Origin: an uncultured Planctomycetota bacterium
Lineage (GTDB): Bacteria > Planctomycetota > Phycisphaerae > Sedimentisphaerales > UBA12454
Direction of reading: 5' to 3'
NCBI GenBank assembly: GCA_903847315.1
Contig: CAINDG010000036.1
Location: forward strand, 3,587-67,586
DNA: 64,000 nt
Shown here: piece after piece, positions 16,224 through 25,953 of the stretch
Layout of the letters: each line of letters opens with the position of its first letter
Position numbering within the stretch: the stretch's first letter is position 1
The notes under the pieces: generated by a model
Told to the model about the DNA's origin: nothing
Database searches by the model: none
The model's input: the letters and a program-made list of their open reading frames with translations, nothing else
Position numbers and translations under genes: made by a program

Positions 16224-16297
16224 TGGGCGGTACAGGACTCGGACCTGTGGCCTCCTGCTTGTAAGGCAGGCGCTCTAGCCAACTGAGCTAACCGCCC
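16224..16297 (-). tRNA. tRNA-Val (anticodon TAC)
   Basis: The minus strand GGGCGGTTAGCTCAGTTGGCTAGAGCGCCTGCCTTACAAGCAGGAGGCCACAGGTCCGAGTCCTGTACCGCCCA folds as a cloverleaf. The anticodon loop is CTTACAA. Confidence 0.9.
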
Positions 16298-16306
16298 GGT
16301 GGAAAA

Positions 16307-16379
<73 letters not shown>

Positions 16380-16456
16380 GTAAAACCGTTGGGAAAACCG
16401 ACAATTTACCGGCTGGAAAGGGGGATTGCAAGTAAATTTATCCGGATATTAACGTC

Positions 16457-16484
16457 TTGCCAAGCCTGCCGTTGCGGTTATAAT
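16457..16484 (+). promoter_or_regulatory. near-consensus sigma70-type promoter driving tRNA-Gly (and the abutting pilin-like gene)
   Basis: TTGCCA (16457-16462), a 16-nt spacer, then a perfect TATAAT (16479-16484). The tRNA begins 12 nt downstream of the -10 element. Confidence 0.6.
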
Positions 16485-16495
16485 TATTTTGATAT

Positions 16496-16567
16496 GCGGG
16501 CGTAATTCAGTGGTAGAATGTCAGCTTCCCAAGCTGAATGCCGTGGGTTCGAATCCCATCGCCCGCT
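16496..16567 (+). tRNA. tRNA-Gly (anticodon CCC)
   Basis: GCGGGCGTAATTCAGTGGTAGAATGTCAGCTTCCCAAGCTGAATGCCGTGGGTTCGAATCCCATCGCCCGCT. The anticodon loop is TTCCCAA and no CCA is encoded. Confidence 0.9.
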
Positions 16568-16569
16568 TT

Positions 16570-17334
16570 ATGAAAAAAAATAAAGCGTTCACCCTTGTCG
16601 AGCTTCTTGTCGTTATGGCGATAATGGCGGCATTGCTCGCTATCCTTCTGCCTGCATTGACTCTTTCCCGGCAAATCGCATACAAAGTTATCTGCCTTAA
16701 TAATCTGAAACAGCTCGGCATCGCTACCCACTCCTATGTCCAGAGTTCGGAGGTCTATCCGGTCTGCGTGTCGGAAGTAAACGAAACATGGTCTGATTTC
16801 ATAGCCAATCCCGCCATCGCCAATGACAAAATGCTCGGCGTGCCGGCTTCGCTGTGGCCTTTCCATAAAAACGAAAAACTTTACAAATGTCCTGTGCTTT
16901 CCAAAATCGGCTGCGATATCAGTTATTGTTATAACTGGCAGGCGGGCAGGGAACTGGGTGCCGGCGAGACTGCTTTTGCCGGGCCTTCCGATATTCCGCC
17001 GGTACATCCGCCGAAAGTGCAGAAAACTAATCTTTATGTTCTAACTCCCGAAAAAGTAAAATCGCCCGGCCTGTTCGTACTGCTCTACGACCTGCCGCTA
17101 AAACCAGAACCTATTACCGAAGATACCGCAGGCTCAGACCTCTATAAAGACATCGACCCTGACGATTATGACAGCAGCCGAATCGACCCTAACAATCCGG
17201 GCGATTTATGGCATTACAAAGTTTTGGACGCCTTGGGCCCGCACGCCAAAGGTCAAAGCATTTTATTCGCCGATAGTCATACAAAATGGTATAAAAGATG
17301 GTCGAGTTCTGAAATGACCAGGAAACCCAATTAA
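16570..17334 (+). CDS. pilin-like protein with prepilin-type N-terminal cleavage/methylation domain (DUF1559-like pseudopilin)
   Basis: MKKNKA|[24 protein letters not shown] is a canonical prepilin leader and hydrophobic helix, and the C-terminal [12 protein letters not shown] is DUF1559-like. The track start 16489 reads through the tRNA-Gly and is rejected. Confidence 0.85.
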
Positions 17335-17489
17335 GAACAAGCACTGTCATCTTGACGCCTAAACCGGCTTTTTCTGCCAAAATTGGCAGGGCAAATCCAT
17401 CTTAAAAAAGTCATTTTTAGTTTATCTTTGTTTCATAACCATTTATTCAGCAATATGTTATAGTTTTTAGTATCTTTAGTCATAGAAAG

Positions 17490-17521
17490 CTGGTATTTTT
17501 TTTGCATATAGATAATACCAG
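17490..17521 (+). promoter_or_regulatory. inverted repeat in the groEL-1 upstream region (candidate operator)
   Basis: CTGGTATT-N16-AATACCAG, 55 nt upstream of the groEL-1 ATG, overlapping a possible TTGCAT -35 element. No CIRCE-like TTAGCACTC-N9-GAGTGCTAA was seen by eye. Confidence 0.35.
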
Positions 17522-17575: not shown

Positions 17576-19264
17576 ATGGCAGCGAAAGAGTTAGTGTTTA
17601 ATGCTGATGCAAGGGCGGCCTTGCTTGTCGGAGTAGAAAAACTGGCACGTGCGGTACGGTCGACTCTTGGCCCGCGAGGCAGAAACGCCATCATCGACAA
17701 AGGCTGGGGCAGTCCAACGGTTACAAAGGACGGCGTAACAGTCGCTGAGGAAATAGACCTCGTCGATAAGACTGAAAATATGGGCGCCAAACTTGTAAAA
17801 GAGGCGGCCAGCAAGACGAGCAAAATCGCAGGCGATGGAACTACCACCGCTACCGTTCTTACCGAGGCGATTTTCAAAGAGGCATATCGAAACATCGCGG
17901 CTGGCGCAGACCCAATGGCAATCAACAGAGGCATTGGGCAGGCGGTTGACGCTATAACGAAGGCACTTGTCAAACTCGCCAAGCCGGTTGATATCACAAA
18001 AAGAGACGACATCGAAAACATCGCCTCAATCTCAGCGAACAACGACCATGAAATCGGCAAGATTATGGCTGACGCTTTTACAAAGCTGGGCAAAGACGGC
18101 GTTATTACCGTTGAGGAAGGCAAGAGCCTTGATACGACGCTCGAATTTGTCGAGGGTATGCAATTCGACAGAGGATATCTGTCTCCCAACTTCGTAACAA
18201 ACGTCGATAATATGCTCTGCGAACTTGAGAAGCCGTATATATTAGTTTATGAAGACAAGATAAGCAGCGTTCAGAAACTTGTGCCTTTACTGGAAGCAGT
18301 CGCAAAGAGTAAAAGACCGTTGCTTATTATCGCCGATGACTTAGAGGGCGAAGCACTTGCGACGCTGGTAGTGAACAAACTTCGCGGCGTTCTGCAGATT
18401 TGTGCCGTCAAAGCACCCGGCTACGGCGACAGAAGAAAAGCAATGCTCGAGGATATCGCGGTTCTCACAGGCGCTGAGCCGATTTTCAAAGATTTGGGAA
18501 TCGAACTTAACAATATAAAACTTTCTCAGCTCGGAAGAGCCCGAAAAATCACTATTGATAACGATAATACGATAATCGTTGAAGGAGCCGGTACGCAGGA
18601 AGCAATTAACGGCAGGATAAAGGCAATCCGCAGCGAGATTGAAGCGACAACCAGCGATTACGACCGCGAAAAACTTCAGGAAAGACTTGCCAAGCTGACA
18701 GGCGGAGTGGCGCAGGTTAATGTCGGAGCCGCGACGGAATCAGAGATGAAAGAAAAGAAGGCGCGAATCGAAGATGCCCTTCACGCTACAAGAGCGGCGA
18801 TCGAGGAAGGTATCGTCCCCGGCGGGGGAGTTGCCCTGATTCGATGTATCGATACGGTTAAAAAACTTAAACTCAGCGGCGATGAGAAAACAGGCGCCGA
18901 TATTATTGCACACGCCCTTAAAATGCCTTGCTACTATATCGCAGAAAACGCTGGCGCTGTCGGCAACCTGGTCGTAAATAAAATTTCTGAAGGCAAGGAC
19001 GGATTCGGCTACAACGCTGATACCGATAAATTCGAAGATCTCATCAAGGCCGGCGTTATCGACCCTGTAAAGGTAACAAGAATCGCGTTGCAGAATGCCG
19101 CTTCAGTTGCGGGACTGCTGCTAACCTGCGATTGCGTTGTTACTGAAAAACCGCAAAAAGAAAAAGCCGGCGCAGGAATGCCGCCGGGCGGCATGGGCGG
19201 AATGGGTGGCATGGGTGGTATGGGTATGGGCGGCATGGGTGGTATGGACGATATGGGAATGTAA
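17576..19264 (+). CDS. groEL: chaperonin GroEL, copy 1 (with Gly-Gly-Met tail)
   Basis: 562 aa with [30 protein letters not shown] and [11 protein letters not shown]. The C-terminus is [27 protein letters not shown]. Confidence 0.97.
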
Positions 19265-20307
19265 TGAAAATGATGAACTGTAAAACAAAACGAAAAGTAA
19301 AATTTGCCAAAGGGCAATACCTTATTGCTCTTTTGGCTTTGTTTTTGTTTAACTCTCTTTCATTTGCCGTACAAGACCCAAACGGAGAGCAAAAGTTTTC
19401 TGTTGAGCAAACGAAAAAATTCGAAGAGAATTTACAGAGTTCATTCTCCGGCATTGGAACAGGAATCGAAATTAATCCAAAAGGAATTTACATCAAAAAT
19501 GTTATTCCCGGCGGACCTGCAGAAAAAGCAGGATTAAAAGGCGGCGAAATAATTACCGAAATTGATGGCAAATCCACGACAGGAATGTCTTTGGAAAAAG
19601 CAGTTTCAATGCTTAAAGGACCAACAGGCACAAGTGTTAATCTCAAACTGCTTTTAAGCAATGGGACCGCTCAGGAAATCAGCATTGTTCGGGGACCAGT
19701 ATCTGTCTCAGGTGTAGACAGCCGTGTTATAGAGCCAAATATAGGTTTGCTCGTTATCTCTGGTTTTAAGAATGAATCGGCCGCAAAGGTTAAAGATGCA
19801 CTTTTAAATTTTCAGCAAAAGAAAATTAAAGGTTTGATTCTCGATATTCGCAACAACAAGGGCGGTTTTCTACCAGAAGTCAAAAAAATTACCGGTTTTT
19901 TTCTTGAGCCAAACGAAATAATGTGGCAGACACAAAACATTGGTCAAAATGAACGTATATCGGTAAAAAGTAATAGTAGGAAAATATCACAATGGCCGAT
20001 AGTAGTGCTTATTAATTCGGAGACGATGTGCGGTGGAGAATTGTTAGCTTCGGCTGTGAAGTCTAAAGGCGGGGCTAAGCTTCTCGGTCAGAAAACATTT
20101 GGCGAAGGCTCTTTTTATAAATTTGAAAAACAAGATGATGGCACGAGTAAAAAAGTCCGGATGGGATATTTCTTTACCGCAGATGGACAAGATCTTGAAG
20201 GTAAGGGTGTCATTCCGGATATTGAGATAGACCCAAAACTTTCAACAGAGGAAATTATCAAAAAAGCAGTTAATGAATTAACTAAAAATAACGTAAATAA
20301 AACATAA
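19264..20307 (+). CDS. exported PDZ domain / S41 (C-terminal processing peptidase)-like protein with substituted catalytic dyad
   Basis: The start overlaps the groEL-1 stop (TAATG). The signal peptide is YLIALLALFLFNSLSFA and the PDZ region is GIGTGIEINPKGIYIKNVIPGGPAEKAGLKGGEIITEIDG. The S41 core is LILDIRNNKGGFL and VVLINSETMCGGELLASAV..GQKTFGEG. Cys256 and Glu281 occupy the positions where S41 enzymes carry Ser and Lys. Confidence 0.8.
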   Translation: MKMMNCKTKRKVKFAKGQYLIALLALFLFNSLSFAVQDPNGEQKFSVEQTKKFEENLQSSFSGIGTGIEINPKGIYIKNVIPGGPAEKAGLKGGEIITEIDGKSTTGMSLEKAVSMLKGPTGTSVNLKLLLSNGTAQEISIVRGPVSVSGVDSRVIEPNIGLLVISGFKNESAAKVKDALLNFQQKKIKGLILDIRNNKGGFLPEVKKITGFFLEPNEIMWQTQNIGQNERISVKSNSRKISQWPIVVLINSETMCGGELLASAVKSKGGAKLLGQKTFGEGSFYKFEKQDDGTSKKVRMGYFFTADGQDLEGKGVIPDIEIDPKLSTEEIIKKAVNELTKNNVNKT

Positions 20308-20326
20308 GCAATAAGGAGTTAAAAAA

Positions 20327-20617
20327 ATGAAACTTAGACCTTTGGATGACAGAATTATTGTGAAGCCCGAAGAGGCGGAAGAAAAAACAGCGGGCGGAAT
20401 CGTTCTGCCGGACGCCGCAAAGGAAAAACCATTGATGGGTAAAGTTATAGCAGTAGGGCCGGGCAAACTCTTAGACAGCGGCAAGCGTGCAGAAGTCGCC
20501 GTTAAGAAAAACGACACCGTACTGTTCGCAAAGTACGGCGGAAACGACATAAAGATTGACGGCGTTGAATACAAAATTCTTCACGAGAGCGATATTCTCG
20601 GCATAGTAGAGAAGTGA
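20327..20617 (+). CDS. groES: co-chaperonin GroES
   Basis: 96 aa with MKLRPLDDRIIVKP..EKTAGGIVLPD..GKVIAVGPG. Confidence 0.97.
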   Translation: MKLRPLDDRIIVKPEEAEEKTAGGIVLPDAAKEKPLMGKVIAVGPGKLLDSGKRAEVAVKKNDTVLFAKYGGNDIKIDGVEYKILHESDILGIVEK

Positions 20618-20625
20618 GGTAAAAA

Positions 20626-22245
20626 ATGGCAAAACAAATGATGTTTGATGATGCGGCAAGGTCACACCTGAAACAGGGACTTGCCAGTCTGGCAGCGGCG
20701 GTTAAGGTAACTCTGGGCCCGACGGGCAAAAACGTTATGCTGTATAAAAGTTACGGCTCGCCGAAGATAACCAAAGACGGCGTATCGGTCAGCAAGGAAA
20801 TCGAGTTGCCTGAGCCGTTCAAGAATATGGGCGCCAAAATGGTTAACCAGGCCGCAACCAAGACGAGCGATGTCGTTGGCGACGGCACTACTACCGCGAC
20901 GGTTCTGGCTGAAGCGATTTATAACGAAGGGCTAAAAAATGTAGCGGCAGGCGCTAATCCGATGGCTGTCAAACGCGGCATCGATAAGGCTGTGCAGATT
21001 GTTGTTGATTTTATCGCTTCGCAAAGCAAAAAAGTCAAAGGACACGATGACATTGCTAAAGTCGCCACCATAAGCGCGAATAACGATTCGGAAGTCGGCG
21101 AAATTCTCGCCGATGCGATGGATAAAGTCGGCAAGGAAGGCGTTATCGAGGTTGAGGAAGGCAAAAGTCTTGTAACCGAGCTTGAAGTCGTAAAAGGAAT
21201 GCAGTTCGACCGCGGCTATATATCGCCTTACTTCATAACAAATACCAGCACGATGGAAGCTGTTCTTGAGGACGCTTACATTCTGCTGTATGAAAAGAAA
21301 ATTTCGAGCATTGCTGAAATTATTCCGCTTCTGGAAAAAATCGCTCAGGTCGGTTCCCAATTGCTCATAGTCGCTGAAGAAGTCGAGGGCGAGGCTCTGG
21401 CTGCTTTGGTTATAAATAAACTTCAGGGCGTTTTGAAGGTTTGCACCGTAAAGGCTCCCGGCTTTGGCGACAGAAGAAAAGCTATGCTCGGCGATATAGG
21501 CGTTCTTACCGGCGGACAGGTGCTTACAGAGGACCTGGGCATAAAACTTGAGAAAGTCGAACTGTCACAACTCGGAAAGGCAAAAAAAATTGTTATCGAA
21601 AAGGAAAACACGACGATAATCGAAGGAGCGGGCACAAAGAAAGACATAACCGCCCGCTGCGAACAGATACGCAAACAAGTTGAAGCGACTACCAGCGATT
21701 ATGACCGCGAGAAGCTGCAGGAACGATTGGCAAAACTGACCGGCGGCGTAGCGGTAATAAAAGCAGGCGCTTCGACTGAAACGGAAATGAAGGAAAGAAA
21801 AGACCTTCTCGACGACGCTCTGCACGCGACCAAAGCGGCTATGGAAGAGGGCGTCATCCCCGGCGGCGGAGTTATCTATCTGCGGGCTATCGAAAAAGTC
21901 CGACAGGCAAAGACAAAGACGAGCGAAGATGAAAAAATCGGTTTTGATATTATCGCCAGCGCCTTAAAATCGCCGACGAAACAAATAGTCGACAACGGCG
22001 ACGAAGACGGCGATGTGGTTGTCGAAAAGTTGCTCGAGCAGAGCGGAAATACAGGCTATGACGCCAACAGCGGCAAGTTTGTCGATATGGTTGAGGCGGG
22101 CATTCTCGACCCGGCTAAGGTCGCAAGATGCGCCCTGCAAAATGCCGCTTCGGTTGCAGGTCTTATGCTGACTACCAATGTGCTTATCACCGACCTGAAA
22201 GACGATGATAAGGATAAACCGCAAATAGAAGGTTCAGTGCGGTAA
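20626..22245 (+). CDS. groEL: chaperonin GroEL, copy 2 (no GGM tail)
   Basis: 539 aa with [28 protein letters not shown] and [11 protein letters not shown]. The C-terminus is the charged [16 protein letters not shown] rather than GGM repeats. Confidence 0.97.
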
Positions 22246-22253
22246 CTAAATAA

Positions 22254-23399
22254 ATGGCCAAACGCGATTATTATGAAGTGTTGGGGGTTGATAAAAACGC
22301 CGGCGCCGACGATATTAAACGCGCATATCGCAGGCTGGCTATAAAATATCATCCCGACAAGAACCCCGGCGATAAAGACGCTGAGGCGAAGTTCAAGGAA
22401 TGCGCCGAGGCTTACGAGGTTTTGAGCGATTCCGATAAACGCGCCAGATACGACCAGTACGGTCACGCAGGACTTCAGGGTTCAGGCGTTCACGATTTTT
22501 CGAGAATGAACGTCGAGGATATATTCGGTGCCCTTAACCTTGAAGATATTTTCGGGGATTTATTCGGCAGCGGTTTTGGCGGCAGGAGCCGGCGTTCAGC
22601 GGCGAGAGGGCCAAAGAGGGGCTATGACCTTGAGACTGTTGTCGAGCTTACACTCAACGACGTCGCGAGCGGCGTGGAAAAGAGTATCGAATTTACCCGG
22701 CAGGATATGTGCGACGACTGCACCGGCTCGGGCACTGCCAAAGGCAGCAGTCCTTCAAAATGCCCGGCCTGCGGCGGTTCGGGACAAGTTGCACAAGCCG
22801 GTCTTGGCGGTTTCTTTCAAATGGTTTCAACCTGCCCGCGATGCAAAGGTAACGGAACAATAATCAGCAATCCCTGCAAGAAATGCAGAGGCAGCGGCAG
22901 GATACCGAGGAAGCGGCTTGTCAGCGTTAAAATTCCGGCAGGCGTTCATGAAGGACAAGGCGTAAGAGTCGCCGGCGAAGGCGAACCGGGCTTTAACGGC
23001 GGACCGCGAGGCGATTTGTACTGCTATGTAAGATTAAAGGAGCATCCATTCCTGCAGAGGGACGGCGTTGACCTTATCGCGGCGGTGCCGGTGGGCTTCA
23101 CACAGGCGGCTCTTGGCGGTGTAATTGAAGTGCCGAGCCTTAACGGAGCAAAAGAGTTGAAGATTCCGCCGGGAACCCAGAGCGGTGATATATTCAGAAT
23201 CAAAGGGCAGGGACTGCCGGACATTAGAACGAAACGCAACGGCGATGAACTTGTCCAGATACTCGTCGAAATACCAAAAAAACTCAACAGCCAGCAGGAA
23301 GAACTGCTCAGAAAATTTGCCGAGACGGAAGATAAAACCGTTTTGCCGAAATCGAAGGGTTTTTTTGAAAAACTTAAACAGTATTTCAATAATAAGTAA
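22254..23399 (+). CDS. dnaJ: molecular chaperone DnaJ (type I)
   Basis: J-domain [21 protein letters not shown], a G/F region, and four CxxCxGxG repeats ([32 protein letters not shown]). Confidence 0.95.
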
Positions 23400-23404
23400 A
23401 ATTT

Positions 23405-24001
23405 ATGAGTGAAGATACACCCAAAGAACCCGTTGAACAGCAGAAGCAGGAACAAACGCCTCCTGCCGATAGCGGGGGACATACGGAGCATAAAAAAGAC
23501 AAGCTTCACAAACTGCAGGCGGAAAAAGACGAAATATTTGCGCGTCTTCAGCGTCTCAGCGCCGATTATCAGAATCATCAGAAGCGCTCCGCAAAACAAA
23601 TCGCAGAATCGATAGCTTACGAAAAGGAAATAATAATAAAATCTCTGCTGCCTGTACTCGATAATCTTGACCATACATTGAGTAATGCTGAGAAAGTTCA
23701 GGACATCGCCGATGTGCTTAAAGGCGTAAAAATCATTTACGACCAGTTTCTGGCGATATTAAAAGCTCACGGCGTTGAACAGATAACTGCTGTCGGGGTG
23801 AAGTTTGATCCGACATATCATCAGGCACTTACACAAAGAGCAGAGCCGGACAAGGAAGAGGGGATAGTTCTTGAAGAATTTCGCAAGGGCTACAAACTCG
23901 CCGAAAAAGTTCTTCGTCCCGCAGTTGTAATAGTTAATAAGAAGCAGTCGAAAACGCAAGAACCGCAGACAGACGACAGCGGCAGTGAAAACGGGGATTA
24001 A
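23405..24001 (+). CDS. grpE: nucleotide exchange factor GrpE
   Basis: 198 aa with a coiled-coil N-terminus, RLSADYQNHQKRSAKQI, LLPVLDNLDHTL, and the C-terminal beta domain FDPTYHQAL..YKLAEKVLRPAVV. Confidence 0.9.
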   Translation: MSEDTPKEPVEQQKQEQTPPADSGGHTEHKKDKLHKLQAEKDEIFARLQRLSADYQNHQKRSAKQIAESIAYEKEIIIKSLLPVLDNLDHTLSNAEKVQDIADVLKGVKIIYDQFLAILKAHGVEQITAVGVKFDPTYHQALTQRAEPDKEEGIVLEEFRKGYKLAEKVLRPAVVIVNKKQSKTQEPQTDDSGSENGD

Positions 24002-24004
24002 ACT

Positions 24005-24310
24005 GTGCCAACCTACGAATACCAGTGTAAAAAATGCGGCTGCGAATTTGAAAAATTTCAATCAATGACCGCTCCTGTTTTGCGAAAGTGCCCAAAGTGC
24101 GGCAAACTATCGCTGAAAAGGCTTATAGGCACAGGCGCCGCGGTGATTTTTAAAGGCTCAGGCTTTTACCAGACGGATTACCGCAGCGATTCTTATAAAC
24201 AATCCGTTAAAAAGGAATCCGACGCCGGCAGCAAAAAAGAGGAAAAGAAGAGTACAAAGACTGAAGCAAAAAAGACGCCCCCTGTAAAAACGGATAAGAA
24301 ATCCACCTGA
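24005..24310 (+). CDS. FmdB-family zinc-ribbon protein
   Basis: GTG start. (M)PTYEYQCKKCGCEFEKFQSM..KCPKCG is the CxxC_CxxC_SSSS signature, followed by a Lys/Glu-rich tail. Confidence 0.85.
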   Translation: MPTYEYQCKKCGCEFEKFQSMTAPVLRKCPKCGKLSLKRLIGTGAAVIFKGSGFYQTDYRSDSYKQSVKKESDAGSKKEEKKSTKTEAKKTPPVKTDKKST

Positions 24311-24313
24311 CCG

Positions 24314-25333
24314 TTATTTTCTGATGACCATTATCGTTAGATTTGTCTGTTCCAAAGTGTTGTCGGATTTTAACTGCTCAGTTTTTTCTGTAGCAGTAAG
24401 CACAGGCTTGTTCGGCATTAAGAGGTCGTAATCTATATTATCTTTCGCAACATATTGTTTTGAGACGTCCACCGCGGTAGCTGCATTTATCATAGCAATA
24501 TCGTTTGCCATTCGTACTCTCTGGGTGTAATTGTCGGCTTTGCAGATGTCGAGAACCTGCTGGGCGGTCACGCTATTTACGGTTATATATTTTCCCGCCT
24601 GTTCAGTGCCGACTTCCAGCGTGGCATCTGTGCATTTAGGCCAGACAAAACTCAATTCGCCGAGCAGATTCAGGAGCGAATCACTGCTGCAGTTTAGAAC
24701 ATATTTTACAGAACCTGTGTTTCTTTCGACCGCTGTGGTCTTATCGAAAAGTCCCGTATTTGTCAGCACCTTGCCGATGAGCCAATCGGTTTCGACGGGA
24801 CTATCCGTCATAAGAGTAAGTTTTACCACCAGTGGAATCGTCGTGGTTTTCGGAGCCGGTACCGGAATCGCCTCGATTTCGGCCGGTTTTACCTCCGCGA
24901 AAGGCTTTTCGTACAATACCTGCGGCTTTTCTTTTCTTTCAAAAACGCTGTTGACAAGCTTTTGCCTGTCGGCCTTCGGCACAAAGATATCGAACACAAC
25001 GATACCAAGCATAGCCAAAAGCACAAGAACAGCCGCTACCGTTGTCAGCCGTCTCAAAACCAGATGCCGTTTGCCTGCCCTGTGATATTCGCCTGTATCG
25101 GCAAGAAGAATATGTCTTTCGAGATGTTTGGTAACGCTTTCGCAAAAGCCTTCCGGTGCCTTGTCCGACGCGACAGCGCCCATCAGTTTTTTGTAGCGGC
25201 TCAGCGAATCGAAAAGCCGGCGAATCTGCTTATCGTTGTCGATAAGCCGTTTAACTTCATTGTTTTTCCGCTCATCGAGCTCGCCGTCGATATAACTATT
25301 AAGCAGTTCTTCGATTAGTTCCATATCTTTCAT
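24314..25333 (-). CDS. anti-sigma factor (zf-HC2-like N-terminus, one TM, extracytoplasmic domain of unknown fold)
   Basis: 4-nt overlap (ATGA) with the upstream ECF sigma gene. The N-terminus is ELLNSYIDGELDERKNNEVKRLI and the TM segment is LTTVAAVLVLLAMLGIVVFDIF. Confidence 0.65.
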   Translation of the reverse strand: MKDMELIEELLNSYIDGELDERKNNEVKRLIDNDKQIRRLFDSLSRYKKLMGAVASDKAPEGFCESVTKHLERHILLADTGEYHRAGKRHLVLRRLTTVAAVLVLLAMLGIVVFDIFVPKADRQKLVNSVFERKEKPQVLYEKPFAEVKPAEIEAIPVPAPKTTTIPLVVKLTLMTDSPVETDWLIGKVLTNTGLFDKTTAVERNTGSVKYVLNCSSDSLLNLLGELSFVWPKCTDATLEVGTEQAGKYITVNSVTAQQVLDICKADNYTQRVRMANDIAMINAATAVDVSKQYVAKDNIDYDLLMPNKPVLTATEKTEQLKSDNTLEQTNLTIMVIRK

Positions 25334-25953
25334 TGTACTGCCGCCTCGAGAATTTCCCGCAGGTTCTTTCTGCCGCGGGCAATTCTGCTTTTTACCGTTC
25401 CGATTTCCATTTCGAGCGTATTAGCGATTTCAGTATAACTCATCTGCTCAATATCCCTCAGTACAACTACGGCCCTTTGCTGCGGGTCGAGTTTTTCAAG
25501 AGCCTTTAAAATCAGGCCGTTTACTTCTTTTTTCGCCGCCAGCTCCGAAGGGTCGGTTGTCTTTTTATCTACCAGATAATCCTTCAACTGCCGGCCGGCG
25601 TCTTCGTCCAATTCATTCTGAAGCGACTGAAAACTCACCCTTGAGTTTTTCTTGCAGAAGTTCAGCGTCAGATTAACCGCTATCCTGAAGAGCCAGGTAT
25701 AAAAGCTGCTTTGACCCTTAAAATCTTTCAGCCCCTGGATAGCCCTTATAAACGCGTCCTGCGCAAGCTCGGCGGCGTCAGCCTCATTTCCGCAAAGCTT
25801 CAGTATGGTATTGTAAATCCTGTCCTGATACTTAAGTATCAGCCTTTCGACAGAGTCCATATTGCCGGCCCTGGCCTGAGCGACAAGCGATGCCTCGTCA
25901 ATACTTATATTGCCGCTGGCTGCTTTTAATCGTTCCTGTATAAATTTGACCAT
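25330..25953 (-). CDS. ECF-type RNA polymerase sigma factor (sigma-70 family)
   Basis: 207 aa with region 2 (YQDRIYNTILKL..DAEDLAQDAFIRA-like, FYTWLFRIAVN) and region 4 (VVVLRDIEQMSYTEIANTLEMEIGTVKSRIARGR). Confidence 0.9.
   Translation of the reverse strand: MVKFIQERLKAASGNISIDEASLVAQARAGNMDSVERLILKYQDRIYNTILKLCGNEADAAELAQDAFIRAIQGLKDFKGQSSFYTWLFRIAVNLTLNFCKKNSRVSFQSLQNELDEDAGRQLKDYLVDKKTTDPSELAAKKEVNGLILKALEKLDPQQRAVVVLRDIEQMSYTEIANTLEMEIGTVKSRIARGRKNLREILEAAVQ

Follow-up and report, generated by a model that had tools for sequence, protein, structure and literature searches.

What would a protease-like protein with a predicted export signal do in the middle of an operon for cytosolic chaperones, and does it still cleave anything? 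The question is raised by a 64,000-nt stretch of DNA (hereafter the window; contig CAINDG010000036.1 of assembly GCA_903847315.1, positions 3,587 to 67,586 of the forward strand) from an uncultured Planctomycetota bacterium, in which a gene for a PDZ-containing relative of the S41 peptidases lies between groEL-1 and groES. A first-pass annotation of the sequence had proposed either a catalytically dead pseudo-protease or an enzyme with altered chemistry. Our results support this alternative and favour its first branch, given the loss of the triad Gln throughout the clade, the variable triads, purifying selection and the existence of a widespread degenerate module. On these grounds the S41-like protein is probably a pseudo-protease. 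The complete proposal, an exported pseudo-protease that acts as holdase or sensor within a heat-shock operon, is more tentative and we would place it slightly short of even.

The listing of open reading frames (ORFs) and the translation gave a 347-aa S41-like protein, with no competing long ORF on either strand. The features of the gene are the following:

19264..20307, plus strand: S41-like PDZ protein (Pfam, alignments, AlphaFold2 model)
19264..19368, plus strand: predicted Sec signal peptide, residues 1-35 (hydrophobicity pattern)
19453..19650, plus strand: PDZ domain, residues 64-129, after an intact carboxylate-binding loop F61-x-G63-I64-G65 (Pfam)
19738..20229, plus strand: S41 peptidase-like body, residues 159-322 (PF03572; comparison with 95 ordinary S41 sequences)
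20029..20031, plus strand: Cys256 codon TGC, at the position of the nucleophile Ser (alignments)
20104..20118, plus strand: Glu281 codon GAA (20104-20106, Lys position) and Tyr285 codon TAT (20116-20118, Gln position) (alignments)

The ATG and the stop codon of groEL-1 have one base in common (TAATG, 19262-19266), the stop codon ends at 20307 and the groES ATG begins at 20327, after a 19-nt gap that carries an AAGGAG ribosome-binding site. Both junctions, the 1-nt overlap and the 19-nt spacing, were thus as first described. An identical nucleotide sequence was found in at least three further independent metagenome assemblies, so the unusual residues of the gene are not sequencing or assembly errors. 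GC content at third codon positions (GC3) was 0.32 in the S41-like gene versus 0.44-0.55 in the flanking chaperone genes (17576-24001), and it was likewise lower in most of the other loci described below.

Pfam searches recovered the two domains that had been recognized by eye, a PDZ domain (residues 64-129, E 7e-15) and a Peptidase_S41 body (PF03572, residues 159-322), the latter with 121.7 bits against a cut-off of 24, an E value of 3e-35 and coverage of model positions 1-165 of 165. The NCBIfam model for C-terminal processing peptidases (CTPs), TIGR00225, scored 216.6 bits, just below its cut-off of 218.6. The closest solved structures were Pseudomonas aeruginosa CtpA (E 1e-38), Bacillus subtilis CtpB, Helicobacter pylori CtpA, the D1 protease and Prc. 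From an alignment of 113 sequences, AlphaFold2 produced a model that reached a predicted local distance difference test score (pLDDT) of 89.8 and a predicted template modelling score (pTM) of 0.82, with residues 1-36 disordered. When this model was submitted to Foldseek, the best matches were CtpA 8sxg/8sxe (template modelling score, TM, 0.81; E ~1e-29), CtpB 4c2c and H. pylori CtpA 9jr1, so that the comparison with CtpB and Prc suggested in the first-pass annotation ended in agreement with the CtpA and CtpB folds.

The catalytic centre of CtpB is the triad Ser309-Lys334-Gln338, in which the Gln is strictly conserved and the Q338E substitution abolishes activity (PMC3808539). The title of the H. 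pylori CtpA entry 9ku3, which names an S300A/K325A/Q329A mutant, was also used to define the triad. Both the structure-based alignment with CtpA and CtpB and the multiple alignments placed Cys256 on the nucleophile Ser (CtpB S309) and, 25 residues later, Glu281 on the general-base Lys of the FGKG motif (CtpB K334), as had been claimed from the sequence. They further placed Tyr285, a position that had not been raised before, on the third triad residue (CtpB Q338). Among 95 ordinary S41 sequences these three columns are Ser in 100%, Lys in 100% and Gln in 99%. Profile and structure-based alignments, which were unambiguous and contained a single S41 match, showed no intact Ser/Lys dyad elsewhere in the protein, and no second S41 gene is present in the window. 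Because the S41-like protein departs from the family at three of three catalytic residues and narrowly misses TIGR00225, to class it as a C-terminal processing peptidase would be wrong.

The remainder of the domain architecture is well kept. As in CtpA from P. aeruginosa and H. pylori, CtpB from B. subtilis, the D1 protease and Prc/Tsp (MEROPS S41A), the PDZ domain is inserted in the S41 body, and the predicted fold superposes on 8sxg with a TM of 0.81. The G63-I64-G65 loop aligns with CtpB Gly113-Ala116, and the S41 body retains D194, R196, G200, G201, E259, G275, G280, G315 and P318. The carboxylate-binding loop, the D-R-x-x-G-G motif and the 25-residue spacing of the dyad positions are shared with these proteases, which are exported, as the S41-like protein is predicted to be. 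In contrast to them, the S41-like protein carries Cys/Glu/Tyr for Ser/Lys/Gln and the changes A255M, A257G, I260L, T299R and P306A at sites that are invariant in the family. The N-terminal dimerisation domain of CtpB (PF22694) is missing from it, and so are the C-terminal extensions.

Is this arrangement a peculiarity of one genome? The order groEL1, S41-like gene, groES, groEL2, optional small genes, dnaJ, grpE and Zn-ribbon gene, all on one strand, was found in 12 distinct Planctomycetota (Phycisphaerae-type) loci: the window, L001, L003, L005, L007, L008, L010, L012, L024, L029, L035 and L099. Contigs that end early show only the first operon genes, and the dnaJ/grpE/Zn-ribbon order was also seen in L001, L003, L005, L007, L008, L010 and L024. 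Intergenic gaps are short or overlapping. Only three relevant loci came from a scan of genome collections. The relatives are placed in Planctomycetota by their source labels, which are Phycisphaerae for one metagenome-assembled genome (MAG) and "Pirellulales" for two others. Since the concatenated chaperone proteins of the syntenic loci are only 70-89% identical, the gene arrangement must be old. As a control, we considered 57 ordinary S41 loci from the same metagenome scan; all of them had S/K/Q triads and, unlike the genes studied here, none (0/57) had GroEL or GroES encoded in the fetched flanks. The sister proteins P0123 (S/K/K) and P0016 (degenerate) are encoded outside the chaperone-operon context. 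These results extend the operon membership and groEL-X-groES synteny, originally described for a single genome, to a dozen divergent lineages.

The residues found at the Ser/Lys/Gln positions differ among the syntenic loci:

C/E/Y: window, L099, L003, L005 and L024
C/E/S: L029
S/E/Y: L001
S/K/R: L007
S/K/Y: L035
C/H/S: L008
F/E/R: L012
T or deletion/L/R: L010

None of the 12 loci has Gln at the third position. Relatives known as proteins only add C/E/Y, C/E/G and S/K/R, and in those of the L010 group, read with an ungapped alignment anchored on E259, the nucleophile position holds K, E or R and the base position L or F. Because the same place in the operon is occupied by orthologues with F/E and by others in which the nucleophile is replaced by T, K, E or R and the base by Leu, we infer that the S41-like protein lacks protease activity. 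The C/E pair is not confined to one strain: six syntenic loci out of 12 (window, L099, L003, L005, L024 and L029) carry it, as do the protein-only relatives P0004, P0008 and P0124, nine sequences in all, and its carriers are 55-76% identical to the query or to one another.

We then compared, column by column, the 95 ordinary S41 sequences with 16 members of the clade. The ordinary residue was kept by 0% of the clade at position 285 (Gln), by 25% at 256 (Ser) and by 19% at 281 (Lys). A similar loss was seen at A255, A257, I260, V284, T299 and P306, positions at least 91% conserved in ordinary S41 proteins and kept in 0-6% of the clade (at most one member each). On the other hand, F61, G63, I64, G65, D194, R196, G201, E259, G275, G280, G315 and P318 were present in all 16. 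Such a pattern marks a scaffold that is conserved for its binding architecture and not for its chemistry.

The loss and variability of the catalytic residues, a GC3 far below that of the flanking genes (0.32 versus 0.52-0.55) and a non-synonymous rate 2-4 times that of the chaperonins might also be expected of a decaying remnant, that is, a once-active protease gene trapped in the operon and without present function. Calculated with the Nei-Gojobori method for five locus pairs, the ratio of non-synonymous to synonymous rates (dN/dS) of the S41-like gene was 0.17-0.23, compared with 0.04-0.10 for the flanking chaperonins, values that are approximate given the high dS (0.77-1.35). A ratio of 0.17-0.23 indicates that the S41-like gene is maintained by purifying selection. 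This ratio, a reading frame that is intact in 12 divergent lineages, more than 20 invariant motif positions and a confidently predicted fold make decay a very improbable explanation.

A more serious question is whether Cys256 has taken over as nucleophile. According to this alternative, the protein would be a thiol protease that relies on Glu281 (in the P0010 orthologue, His) as general base and trims or degrades misfolded envelope proteins during heat shock in the manner of Prc/Tsp or DegP. The fold, the D-R-x-x-G-G motif, E259 and the PDZ loop are intact, and Cys256 is the sole Cys of the mature protein. The C/E pair is kept in nine sequences with synonymous variation at the Glu (GAA/GAG) and Tyr (TAT/TAC) codons, and one orthologue has a classical-looking C/H pair. 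Moreover, the two positions look coupled, Cys being accompanied by Glu or His and Ser by Lys, with P0003 (S/E) as the sole exception. However, among the syntenic orthologues some have F/E, and others combine T, K, E or R in place of the nucleophile with L or F in place of the base. The invariant Ala just before the nucleophile has given way to Met, Lys, Arg or Thr. We know of no precedent in this clan for a thiol nucleophile served by a carboxylate base. No member of the clade retains the triad Gln, and the Q338E change alone kills CtpB (PMC3808539). The conservation of the three residues does not help this alternative either: in the six full-length C/E/Y proteins, 42% of the S41-body columns are invariant anyway, so that the conservation of C, E and Y (0.42 cubed, ~0.07) is no better than background and is not significant by itself. 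Special selection for Cys/Glu is therefore not shown, and we regard a thiol protease as unlikely.

The distribution of the triad states suggests how they may have come about. On the strongly supported tree of the chaperone genes the states are homoplasious, since L007 (S/K/R) is sister to L003 (C/E/Y) and L008 (C/H/S) is sister to L005 (C/E/Y). The S41-like gene has a tree at odds with that of the operon, and its synonymous divergence is decoupled from that of the flanks in both directions (window against L099 and L001, L005 against L008 and L029): the proportion of synonymous differences (pS) between the window and L099 was 0.52 for the S41-like gene versus 0.75 for groEL1, and between L005 and L008 it was 0.57 versus 0.37. 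In addition, parts of P0010 are closer to P0011 than to its operon sister P0005. Given the homoplasy, the conflicting trees and the decoupled divergence, exchange of the middle gene between lineages through the conserved groEL1 and groES flanks is the simpler explanation, and we do not claim that lineages switched repeatedly and convergently between S/K and C/E. For P0009, the idea that its active site was acquired by gene conversion from a known S/K donor found no support. The joint claim that the C/E (and C/H) proteins function as thiol-dependent C-terminal processing proteases, in which the Ser-Lys dyad has naturally been replaced by a Cys-carboxylate or Cys-imidazole pair, and that S/K and C/E alleles have been exchanged by recombination across these flanks, appears to us quite unlikely.

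Catalytically degenerate relatives of the S41-like protein are not restricted to chaperone operons. We searched 1.84 billion representatives of 50%-identity clusters with a clade profile and inspected the best 150 matches. About half of these clusters had degenerate triads (GAK, GLK, GTK, STK, -LR and others, among clusters P0213-P0270), while the GIG loop and D-R-G-G were kept; one such match was labelled as a Phycisphaerae MAG. Several matches were bitopic proteins of 1,500-1,800 aa with an N-terminal Ser/Thr kinase, one transmembrane helix near residue 400 and an extracytoplasmic part composed of DUF4440, Laminin_G_3, sometimes ThuA or alpha-L-fucosidase, PDZ and a degenerate S41 body (P0214, P0221 and P0232 were examined). 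Judging from these architectures, the degenerate PDZ-S41 unit is a recurrent extracytoplasmic module, and in the kinases it can hardly be anything else than a binding or sensing domain. In the source databases both this degenerate family and the operon-encoded orthologues are annotated as "carboxyl-terminal processing protease" or "S41 family peptidase".

The kinases lend some weight to a more specific role, in which the S41-like protein would be a regulatory pseudo-enzyme that binds a particular partner (an active CTP paralogue, a peptidoglycan hydrolase or a membrane sensor) and modulates or reports envelope stress, comparable to the PDZ domain of DegS or to the related kinase ectodomains, where the same module lies on the extracytoplasmic side. 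As the titles of the CtpA-LbcA and Prc-NlpI structures indicate, CTPs act on particular cell-wall hydrolases through adaptors. The N-terminal domains of the operon-encoded orthologues vary, being either absent or of the DUF4440 type (a domain found in many of them, in two sequence kinds), and the gene evolves fast with a history apparently decoupled from its flanks; both observations speak for this role. Against it, there is no conserved neighbouring partner gene besides the chaperones and no second S41 gene within the window, and nothing ties the S41-like protein to the activator of the operon promoter. We consider a dedicated regulator of this sort rather unlikely.

Where would a pseudo-protease of this kind act? 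The S41-like protein has a single hydrophobic segment (residues 18-36) that follows a Lys/Arg-rich n-region, KTKRKVKFAK, and consists of a core LIALLALFLF and then S-F-A|V; pLDDT in the predicted signal-peptide region was below 50. An equivalent lone N-terminal hydrophobic segment is present in every orthologue, and several of them end in a lipobox-like ...G-C. With good reason, then, the protein is predicted to be exported through the Sec pathway. The opposite possibility is a cytosolic factor that is not exported and whose PDZ domain engages the Met-rich C-terminal tail of GroEL-1. Non-polar C-termini are the ligands of CTP PDZ domains, the start of the gene appears to be translationally coupled to groEL-1, and all GroEL-1 orthologues end in Gly/Met-rich tails. 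Nevertheless, the signal-like segment after a basic n-region in every orthologue, the lipobox-like cysteines of several of them and the position of the PDZ-S41 module after the single transmembrane helix of the related kinases leave this cytosolic role with next to no credence.

The last element of the argument is the operon itself. The genes and control elements that accompany the S41-like gene are the following:

17345-17357, plus strand: palindromic motif TGTCATCTTGACG, conserved, candidate enhancer-binding-protein site
17375-17388, plus strand: palindromic motif TGCCAAAATTGGCA, conserved, candidate enhancer-binding-protein site
17491..17506, plus strand: sigma-54-type promoter TGGTAT-N5-TTGCA (GG-N10-GC), ~70 nt before the groEL-1 ATG (motif search)
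17576..19264, plus strand: groEL-1, 562 aa, with a Gly-Met-rich C-terminal tail, first operon gene (ORF; Cpn60_TCP1 recorded for orthologues)
20327..20617, plus strand: groES, 96 aa (ORF; Cpn10 recorded in all orthologous loci)
20626..22245, plus strand: groEL-2, 539 aa, without Gly-Met tail (ORF)
22254-23399, plus strand: dnaJ (ORF; conserved same-strand cluster)
23405-24001, plus strand: grpE (ORF; conserved same-strand cluster)
24005-24310, plus strand: small Zn-ribbon gene (ORF; conserved same-strand cluster)

The consensus TGGYAY-N5-TTGCW has one match only in the 64-kb window, where 0.27 would be expected anywhere by chance. When the upstream regions of nine loci (the window and eight others) were compared, a sigma-54-type element was found at the same place before groEL1 in L001, L003, L005, L007, L008, L010, L012 and L024. 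The window and most of the eight others also share the conserved palindromes TGTCAnnTTGnCG and TGCCAAAATTGGCA, ~100-145 nt upstream of this promoter, and the two palindromes may be activator sites. Control of Planctomycetota chaperone genes by sigma-54 has been predicted earlier (PMC12316311). No match to the CIRCE element, as for CIRCE/HrcA control, was obtained with up to 3 mismatches allowed, and no convincing plus-strand terminator was seen between 17576 and 24310. Near the operon, Rfam reported three tRNAs only. Taking these data together, we infer that the S41-like gene is co-transcribed with the chaperone genes from the predicted sigma-54-type promoter.

We propose the following mechanism for the pseudo-protease. 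A Sec-exported derivative of a CtpA/CtpB-type protease would have kept the fold, the PDZ peptide-binding loop and the substrate-tunnel scaffold and lost the Ser-Lys-Gln centre (now Cys-Glu-Tyr). Co-transcribed with groEL1, groES, groEL2, dnaJ and grpE from the sigma-54-type promoter, it would, by virtue of this shared promoter, be made whenever the cytosolic chaperones are induced. In the periplasm, its former substrate tunnel could receive C-termini or unfolded segments of envelope proteins, which would not be cut, and as a holdase or stress sensor the protein would extend this lineage's heat-shock operon to the envelope. DegP remains active as a chaperone after mutation of its Ser, and the PDZ domain of DegS senses the C-termini of unfolded proteins; DegP/HtrA and DegS are likewise exported PDZ proteins induced by folding stress, and they provide the functional analogy behind the proposal. 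They differ in having the S1C chymotrypsin-like fold, with only the PDZ domain matching, and weakly, and in not being encoded inside groESL operons.

Several considerations weigh against this proposal. The holdase role is suggested by genomic context and the DegP analogy, and both export and co-transcription are predicted. Cysteine can serve well as a nucleophile, and the mature protein contains just one, Cys256. The pairing of C with E or H, and of S mostly with K, could mean that both positions are still functionally coupled. Finally, S/K is kept in three lineages, so some members of the clade could be real proteases.

By homology and fold the S41-like protein is a member of the S41 superfamily, in which non-catalytic homologues are already known, as is the concept of the pseudo-protease. 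The modules of IRBP (RBP3) are the classical non-catalytic S41 homologues, in which the fold is likewise re-used for binding without the catalytic dyad. IRBP chains were detected by sequence from the S41-like protein (9frx, 7e-10; 1j7x, 1e-4); unlike it, they are eukaryotic, lack a PDZ domain, bind retinoids and occur in an unrelated context. Pseudo-proteases such as the iRhoms offer a further parallel, a scaffold kept under purifying selection after catalytic loss and re-used for client recognition; they belong to an unrelated membrane family and the comparison is conceptual only. In the searchable literature we found no description of a bacterial CTP-derived pseudo-protease fixed between groEL and groES, nor of a series of triad variants at one locus or of the breadth of the degenerate PDZ-S41 family.

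If the proposal is true, some Planctomycetota would have wired an envelope-side factor into their cytosolic chaperone operon, so that one promoter serves quality control on both sides of the membrane. A single locus that holds S/K, C/E, C/H, F/E or fully degenerate residues would provide a natural series on the S41 scaffold once catalysis has become optional. The protein also draws attention to a large family of degenerate PDZ-S41 proteins, sensor kinases included, that the databases label as proteases, and this annotation of activity is probably wrong.

A number of additional observations were made on the operon and its surroundings. The operon of the window has two chaperonin genes and one groES; GroEL-2 ends in an acidic/basic stretch, and GroEL-1 and GroEL-2 are ~54-57% identical (tblastn against relatives). 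In L034 and L035 a gene for an alpha-L-fucosidase (GH29-like; L035 4491-5906) lies between the S41-like gene and groES, and in P0221 and P0222 such a domain forms one polypeptide with the degenerate PDZ-S41 module, a recurring association. Small genes for four-helix-bundle proteins of the 23S_rRNA_IVP or bAvd-like type are found between groEL2 and dnaJ in L003 (9716-10964) and L005 (9500-9880). The upstream region of L027 shows 60 apparent differences; they are confined to the first 176 nt of the locus, within a few hundred bases of the contig end, and look like an assembly chimera.

Just upstream of the operon there are three tRNA genes (within 16224-16567) and a prepilin-like ORF of the N_methyl/DUF1559 type (16489-17334), whose listed TTG start overlaps the tRNA at 16496-16567; an internal Met is probably the real start. 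Convergent to the operon, at 24314-25953 on the minus strand, an extracytoplasmic function (ECF)-type sigma factor (207 aa) and a 339-aa protein without Pfam matches are encoded, followed by clpX. The 339-aa protein is possibly an anti-sigma factor, and the arrangement is kept in the closest relatives (L001, 11053-12692; L024, 12000-13639).

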